Shown in pieces: positions 3,841-4,169 of a stretch of 64,000 bases of DNA. Below the pieces are notes generated by a model, which was given only the letters and a program-made list of their open reading frames with translations, did not search any database and was not told the origin of the DNA. Numbering within the stretch: the stretch's first letter is position 1; every line of letters starts with the position of its first letter. Origin of the DNA: Escherichia coli (lineage in GTDB: Bacteria; Pseudomonadota; Gammaproteobacteria; Enterobacterales; Enterobacteriaceae); NCBI RefSeq assembly GCF_051903065.1, contig NZ_CP178438.1, one strand, 5' to 3'. A program made the position numbers and the translations under genes.

Positions 3841-3924
3841 TTAATTTCGATTATTTTTCCCGGATGGAAAATTCTTAGAAACCGATCACATACAGCTGCA
3901 TTTATTAAGGTTATCATCCGTTTC

Positions 3925-4011
3925 GCTGAAAAACATAACCCATAAAATGCTAGCTGTACCAGGAACCACCTCCTTAGCCTGTGTAATCTCCCTTACACGG
4001 GCTTATTTTTT
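3925..4011 (+). ncRNA. cyaR: CyaR (RyeE) Hfq-dependent sRNA
   Basis: Sequence gctgaaaaacataacccataaaatgctagctgtaccaggaaccacctccttagcctgtgtaatctcccttacacgggcttatttttt recognised; ends in hairpin plus T-run. Confidence 0.85.
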
Positions 4012-4169
4012 ATGCATAAGCCCTATCCCTGGTCACCGTCTTCCATTGACCACATCGATAGAATCTCCCTTCATAGCACGATGCCTTTCACATAACGGCA
4101 TCGTGCTCGCCCAGGTTCCGGCTACGCACAGCCAGAACGCGCATGTTTGACGCTTACCAAAAAATATTC

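Follow-up and report, generated by a model that had tools for sequence, protein, structure and literature searches.

The last 27 bp of the CyaR small RNA gene, positions 3985-4011 of the 64,000-nt stretch of Escherichia coli chromosome analysed here (the window, which spans baeS to bglX), are the bacterial attachment site of phage P2, a site that also serves close P2 relatives. The site is free in the window, and the short yegQ-yegR interval that contains it is the normal unoccupied form of the locus; the probability of this reading is put at about nine in ten. The interpretation of the position as a P2 docking site is right, though it is established knowledge (MG1655 annotation; PMC3032704). 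An older layer lies to the right of the site. Judged from the alignments presented below, the "compact" interval is probably not pristine, and yegR appears to sit in a much older, almost erased P2-like prophage.

The locus is laid out as follows.

2479-3840, plus strand: yegQ/trhP, an open reading frame of 453 aa, annotated as trhP in the near-identical genome NZ_AP045789.1; the left-hand conserved neighbour of cyaR.
3875-3917, plus strand: putative cyaR promoter region, with a CRP-like half-site TCACA at 3886-3890, centred at about -42, and a -10-like TATCAT at 3912-3917, both read from the sequence.
3925-4011, plus strand: CyaR (RyeE) sRNA gene of 87 nt, without differences from the K-12 copy; coordinates carried over from the MG1655 annotation by alignment.
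3976-4011, plus strand: CyaR intrinsic terminator, with an 11-bp stem, a 6-nt loop and a T-run; the hairpin is 3976-4003, according to the Rfam structure line.
3985-4011: P2 attB core AATCTCCCTTACACGGGCTTATTTTTT, unoccupied; the last 27 bp of cyaR, from the terminator loop through the 3′ stem half to the T-run.
4170-4487, minus strand: yegR, a lipoprotein gene of 105 aa with a signal peptide (...IMSGC); 38.7% G+C.
4820-5800, plus strand: ancestral flank (yegS promoter region) and yegS, the right-hand conserved neighbour of cyaR; homology to the sister species restarts at 4820.

The stop codon of yegQ/trhP (TGA, 3838-3840) and that of yegR on the minus strand (4170-4172) enclose 329 bp (3841-4169), in agreement with the distance of about 330 bp given in an earlier note that was made from the sequence alone. 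CyaR had been placed there at 3925-4011, and the same coordinates are obtained when the MG1655 cyaR annotation (2167114-2167200) is mapped through the alignment. The Rfam model CyaR_RyeE (RF00112) matches 3923-4008 with 100.7 bits, against a gathering score of 47, and is covered from position 1 to 85 of its 85 positions. In a terminator scan of 3800-4950 the CyaR hairpin with its T-run is the sole terminator-like site. The region 3875-3917 is predicted to function as the cyaR promoter with a CRP site; this reading takes its basis from published work on CRP-dependent transcription of cyaR, which we presume to apply here. In nearly all of at least 120 species loci yegQ/trhP is found upstream of cyaR, about 1.5 kb from the CyaR motif, and the window has the same arrangement. 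The same genes are annotated in NZ_AP045789.1 (strain 23CRST027), which shows 2 mismatches to the window across the first 25 kb.

All 27 positions of 3985-4011 agree with the attP core annotated in phage P2 (AF063097, 24356-24382), and the segment is thus the attB site of P2. In AF063097 the neighbours of the core are annotated Int P-arm, IHF, Cox and Int P′-arm sites. The same core bounds P2-like prophages elsewhere, at both junctions of the K-12 remnant and at the int-side junctions in APEC O1 and strain EC21; in the last two, int, C and cox lie directly next to it, toward yegR. In the E. coli W genome paper, "cyaR RNA" appears among the P2 insertion sites, occupied by Wphi2 in W, by ogr-D′ in K-12 and by P2*B in B, and without an occupant in Crooks (PMC3032704, Table 2).

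As is established for P2, the phage integrase would be expected to recombine the 27-bp attP core with the identical core in cyaR. Integration would rebuild an intact cyaR at the left junction, since the cyaR 3′ end is also present on the phage, and a rebuilt cyaR end is seen at the left junction in K-12. In the P2 literature this attB at the 3′ end of cyaR is named locI. Both attB locI and the K-12 remnant were reportedly described by Barreiro and Haggard-Ljungquist in J Bacteriol in 1992.

The core is polymorphic at position 3999, where B2 strains (e.g. ST131) have A, and the window, K-12 and P2 have G (TTACACAGGC vs TTACACGGGC). By the Rfam structure line, the change from G to A turns a G-U pair of the CyaR terminator stem into A-U. 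Exchange with phage-borne copies of the cyaR 3′ end could account for the polymorphism.

In K-12 the site has a different history. Between cyaR and yegR the MG1655 annotation has ogrK, the pseudogene yegZ (a gene D fragment) and a feature named cryptic prophage PR-X at 2167183-2167811 (629 bp), so the K-12 gene order given in the earlier note is correct, and K-12 does not have the compact interval. In a pairwise alignment with MG1655 the window shows a single gap of 630 columns at the place of PR-X, and is otherwise collinear and near-identical; ogrK, the D′ fragment and the D′-core junction are absent between cyaR and yegR in the window, and that note had proposed the absence of ogrK and yegZ. 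At the left junction in K-12, cyaR is complete to its end and the core is whole, with a P2-type P arm behind it. At the right junction, gene D sequence runs into the core, of which the last ~18 bp remain. The K-12 line is derived from a P2-type lysogen in which an internal deletion kept the left junction, the P arm, ogrK, yegZ (a 3′ fragment of D) and a truncated right core. A preprint on a Xenorhabdus tailocin that mentions ogrK was dismissed, as it has no link to cyaR.

The states of the site were counted with junction probes in 5,426 complete E. coli genomes.

Empty, uninterrupted site (the state of the window): 4,206 genomes (77.5%).
P2-type junction of int end, core and flank: 791 genomes (14.6%).
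K-12-specific D′-core junction: 356 genomes (6.6%).
Other or unresolved, by difference: about 70 genomes (about 1.3%).

A 1.6-kb probe, which tolerates inserts of up to 1.3 kb, is covered in 4,578 genomes, in agreement with the junction counts. Since 77.5% of complete E. coli genomes match it, the compact state of the window is the majority state, and that of K-12 is a minority derived state.

The opposite polarity, with the K-12 arrangement ancestral and the compact form produced by deletion of ogrK-yegZ through the ~18-bp core repeats on either side, was also considered. Direct repeats of TACACGGGCTTATTTTTT do flank the remnant, and a deletion between them would recreate the compact form. 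However, the K-12-type junction is present in 356 of the 5,426 genomes against 4,206 with the empty site, and the empty form is spread over very diverse strains (O157, O111, BL21 and B2 strains). These counts leave the deletion scenario close to refuted, and almost no weight is given to it. The rarity of the D′-core junction also bears on the background of the strain. A non-K-12 background had been proposed from the missing remnant, and it is upheld by that count together with gatR (5882-6655), which is intact in the window and carries IS3E in K-12.

Another history would end in the same sequence. In the lineage of the window, this generation of prophage would never have been acquired, or would have been cleanly lost. 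The loss would require that the lineage once carried a modern P2-like prophage at cyaR and that precise Int/Cox excision later removed it, a process that restores attB exactly and leaves no trace. With 14.6% of genomes occupied at present, gain and loss must be frequent, and the core of the window equals that of P2 and differs from that of B2 strains at 3999, which is compatible with replacement of the cyaR 3′ end by a phage-borne copy. The curing scenario has no positive evidence of its own, however; the empty site is the majority state and the simplest assumption, and the sequence is the same under both histories. We regard a cured lysogen as unlikely, although clearly less so than a K-12-like ancestor, and keep to a site that is free in its normal form. 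In strains with the empty site, P2 lysogens are expected to form preferentially at cyaR, which is not expected for K-12.

Several other features of the window were noted. A sequence of about 500 bp is present twice in tandem between yehK and yehL (44476-44973 and 45084-45584; 89% identity), and each copy includes an Rfam OrzO-P antitoxin RNA (44863-44936, 88.8 bits; 45471-45546, 99.9 bits). These copies probably represent the zorO-orzO/zorP-orzP type I toxin-antitoxin pair, a system of O157:H7 that K-12 does not have. The region from about 32834 to 44040 holds three large DUF4132 paralogues in tandem (yehH/yehI-like), with 5′ ends about 85% identical over 200 bp; the first of them is annotated as frameshifted in the near-identical genome, as is gatZ (9985-11248). 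An IS3-family element, IS1397 in the near-identical genome, is present at 12405-13753 between gatY and fbaB. The yehB gene (24790-27270) holds IS903B and IS1A in 23CRST027, and the window is without both.

The use of the site is not limited to E. coli. One genome per species with the CyaR motif was scanned, giving at least 120 loci, and the 120 listed do not take in E. fergusonii, E. marmotae, E. ruysiae or Salmonella. Among these 120, the start of yegS is found less than 450 bp past the CyaR terminator in 66 species loci (median about 120 bp), and the ancestral order is thus yegQ-cyaR-yegS. A P2-type P-arm motif directly follows the terminator in 7 of the 120 listed loci. Homologues of P2 proteins are found at cyaR in two Citrobacter youngae strains, in Enterobacter sp. 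Bisph1 and in a Buttiauxella genome. In E. albertii, 3.4 kb separate cyaR from yegS, and this interval has a P2-type P arm first, then cdtA, cdtB and cdtC, and a well-preserved right junction last. No P2 structural genes were detected by tblastn in this cdtABC insert. The hotspot reading, which the earlier note had put forward from the missing K-12 remnant, holds and extends well beyond E. coli, given the 791 genomes with int junctions and the cases in Citrobacter, Enterobacter, Buttiauxella and E. albertii. The location is to be amended, as the note had placed the hotspot in the 3′ flank of cyaR, and the target is the last 27 bp of cyaR itself.

The P2-like prophages at cyaR in other genera are found at various stages of decay. 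One of the C. youngae loci (L048) has ogr-D-U-T-E-FII-FI in order, and its prophage looks intact over the DNA examined. The other (L029) is heavily decayed, with just fragments of ogr, D, P, Q, A and int within 7 kb. In Enterobacter sp. Bisph1 the P2-like remainder consists of cox and a partial int only, and the Buttiauxella genome, a MAG, has its P2-like prophage at the cyaR terminator. In E. albertii NBRC 107761 the cyaR-yegS interval occupies 4938-8412 of the extracted locus, with the Pfam domains CDtoxinA, Exo_endo_phos and CDtoxinA.

The older layer begins where the core ends. The features of this segment are given below.

4012-4819: E. coli-specific segment of 808 bp, which contains yegR and is absent from the sister species.
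4012-4058: P2 P-arm relic; 4029-4058 (CTGGTCACCGTCTTCCATTGACCACATCGA) matches the annotated Int P-arm binding site of P2, and the part with the IHF site is deleted.
4062-4071: core-like decamer AATCTCCCTT, a possible repeat of the initial 10 bp of the core; its score is reached by 15 of 2000 shuffles.
4076-4106: 10-bp inverted repeat GCACGATGCC/GGCATCGTGC, read from the sequence, without a T-run; its position equals that of the ogr terminator hairpin of P2.
4488-4757: A+T-rich region upstream of yegR, within the E. coli-specific segment; the sister Escherichia species are without it.
4758-4813: attR-like relic, consisting of degenerate P2 P′-side (int-side) sequence followed by the core; the core equivalent, 4787-4813, matches at 19 of 27 positions.

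The segment 4012-4819 has a G+C content of 40.1%, compared with 54% for yegQ and 49% for yegS, and 4488-4819 has 36.4%. In E. whittamii and in the species represented by strain E69 (labelled E. coli E69), yegR is not present and cyaR is followed by yegS after about 106 bp. The window aligns with these genomes as far as the exact end of the core and again from 4820; in the E69-type site the core is followed by TGTACCACGAC. The direct cyaR-yegS junction, when probed, was found in no complete E. coli genome, and the segment is thus fixed in E. coli.

Both borders of the segment show similarity to P2 attachment-site arms. The P-arm relic on the left gives a local alignment score of 38, against 14.7 +/- 2.3 for shuffled sequences (0 of 2000 reach it; z about 10). 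The attR-like relic on the right scores 22 against 8.6 +/- 1.6 (0 of 2000; z about 8). Both relics are more complete in a divergent E. coli allele, from MFDS1022581. Its left relic has 12 extra bases of the IHF/P-arm region. Its right relic shares 97 of 131 aligned positions with P2 (score 60 against 10.8 +/- 1.6; z about 31) and covers the int stop codon, the tandem P′-arm repeats, the region of the Cox sites and the core. The remainder of int coding sequence, about 25 bp of the 3′ end with the stop codon, is found in the MFDS1022581 allele only and not in the window. P2, the right junctions of APEC O1 and E. albertii, and both E. coli relics are collinear in a joint alignment. Past the core or relic core, E. 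albertii and both E. coli alleles run into the same ancestral flank, CGACTTTCATCC. Core and P arm on the left, and P′ side and core on the right, therefore border 4012-4819 in the correct order and orientation. Inspection for att-like remnants next to the cyaR terminator, suggested in the earlier note, has accordingly turned up the P-arm relic, the attR-like relic and the MFDS1022581 allele. Recognisable phage genes are absent from 4012-4819 of the window, where nothing P2-like was found beyond the P-arm and P′-side/core relics.

Two further elements on the left side were set aside. The decamer at 4062-4071 is not significant as a second copy of the core and may be due to chance. The hairpin at 4076-4106 was ruled out as a canonical terminator, as it is not scored by the terminator scan. 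In the 250 bp past the core, strain SCPM-O-B-8794 (labelled E. coli) displays a third and more divergent version of the relic, with a nearly complete P2-like IHF/P-arm stretch, ATACGTAACCAATTGAATTAAAAGATTTGTTTCTGGTTACGCCC, followed by homology to 4120-4160 and to the start of a 170-bp segment of B2 strains.

The P-arm-like and attR-like sequences may be no prophage scars at all, either arising by chance or, conversely, reflecting a P2-like attP that was copied from E. coli DNA around cyaR and yegS. Phages that enter RNA genes do carry gene 3′ ends derived from the host, and the left relic of the window is short, 30 bp in all. However, chance is excluded by the shuffle controls, and the MFDS1022581 allele holds the 3′ end of a phage int with its stop codon and tandem P′ repeats, which are of phage and not of host origin. 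In addition, the relics mark precisely the two ends of the segment missing in the sister species, and both their order and their orientation are correct. An origin other than a prophage is thus considered highly improbable.

The simplest reading of the comparisons is that 4012-4819, including yegR, would be a prophage wreck, left by an ancient P2-like phage and fixed in E. coli. A P2-like phage would have entered cyaR in an ancestor of E. coli and then decayed to the segment that still holds yegR. Since the segment to the right of the core would be an old prophage wreck, the present attB core would be the left-junction (attL) core of the ancient prophage. PR-X of K-12 would be a second and younger layer, inserted into the wreck. 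The borders of PR-X would cover just the youngest layer, which calls for caution in prophage annotation. The locus would also provide a clean sequence-level example of one sRNA gene end used repeatedly by one phage family, with successive prophages decaying in place.

The origin of yegR itself is a separate question. The YegR family is almost confined to E. coli and Shigella, and the protein has been detected in the O157:H7 proteome (PMC3210124). A search of the local copy of Pfam gave no significant match for YegR; a precomputed label, PF27694, is named just "YegR". No YegR homologue was found in bona fide phage genomes by PHROG search and tblastn. A match to phrog_21109 (E = 1e-71) and two tblastn matches to phage records were rejected as signs of phage origin, as the records include host flank: vB_EcoM-720R8 includes host flanking sequence, and "Phage TP" is a K-12-like clone. 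Distant YegR homologues were also sought in P2-like prophages, and the three that were traced are all in unrelated chromosomal or IS-rich contexts. One of these contexts is in Enterobacter sp. BIDMC 29, where a homologue with 51% identity (6001-6318 of the extracted locus L130) adjoins an MFS transporter gene, inside an IS-rich block with an omptin gene and a Tn3-family transposase. This Enterobacter context suggests that the yegR family travels between genomes as a small cassette.

The gene could be cargo left by the ancient prophage, or it could have arrived later inside the wreck. yegR is found within the wreck, and for its arrival as phage cargo the odds are roughly even, with the cdtABC island of E. 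albertii as the closest parallel. The full proposal is that yegR would be domesticated cargo (a moron) of an ancient P2-like prophage in cyaR that decayed to 808 bp, that the P2 site of today would be the recycled left junction of that prophage, and that cyaR would act as a conveyor. This we hold tentatively, at slightly less than an even chance. If it is true, phage cargo has been captured at cyaR again and again, with yegR in E. coli, cdtABC in E. albertii and ogrK in K-12 as the cases. The nested older remnant is a modest addition to what is known of the site. It offers an origin for the orphan yegR, as a single cargo gene fixed in a whole species. No statement of the nesting of yegR in a prophage was found in the literature searched, outside which the key P2 att-site papers lie, and the point may already be noted.

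The region 3′ of yegR is variable. An extra 170 bp, absent from the window, are found directly 3′ of the yegR stop codon (at 4164/4165 of the window) in 948 of 5,426 E. coli genomes. The carriers include CFT073, UTI89, ST131, MFDS1022581 and others, and the window, K-12 and BL21 are without the segment. It is never annotated. A minus-strand ORF of 41 aa (MHIFILSVMGYSSTPLLNVSNNDKQIDETKAEFLFYAAIRK), read by eye, starts in it 14 nt past the yegR stop.

Among known systems, attB locI of E. coli C, where P2 reportedly integrates in nearly every case, is the nearest to the site described here. It has the same 27-bp core at the same place, at the end of cyaR between yegQ and yegR, and is used by P2-like prophages elsewhere; by sequence there appears to be no difference in kind, and the window would represent that site in its unoccupied form. 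PR-X of K-12, termed ogr-D′ in the E. coli W paper, has its insertion point inside the cyaR terminator, the same as the attB core of the window. Unlike the window, K-12 retains the remnant, with the right core cut to ~18 bp and int gone. Because the right core is truncated and int is lost, PR-X is unable to excise by site-specific recombination.

Insertion at cyaR also resembles that of phages and islands at the 3′ ends of small stable RNA genes, in which the phage copy of the gene end likewise rebuilds the RNA gene. ssrA is the site of Fels-2 and SopE-phi, and rybB that of other P2-like prophages. The cyaR target differs from tRNA and ssrA targets in that it is an Hfq-dependent regulatory sRNA that is not tRNA-like, and in its short core of 27 bp. 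Integration cases in tRNA genes and ssrA are described in PMC3448106, which also gives the P2-type arm repeat consensus tgTGGaCa, and the E. coli W paper (PMC3032704) has rybB and cyaR next to each other in its list of P2 sites.

The cdtABC island of E. albertii is comparable to the case proposed for yegR, in that cargo is located between a P2-type left junction (core and P arm) and a right junction. The cargo is a known toxin in E. albertii, whereas yegR encodes a small lipoprotein of no assigned function. The junctions around cdtABC are far better preserved than those around yegR, and the E. albertii event would thus be the younger of the two.
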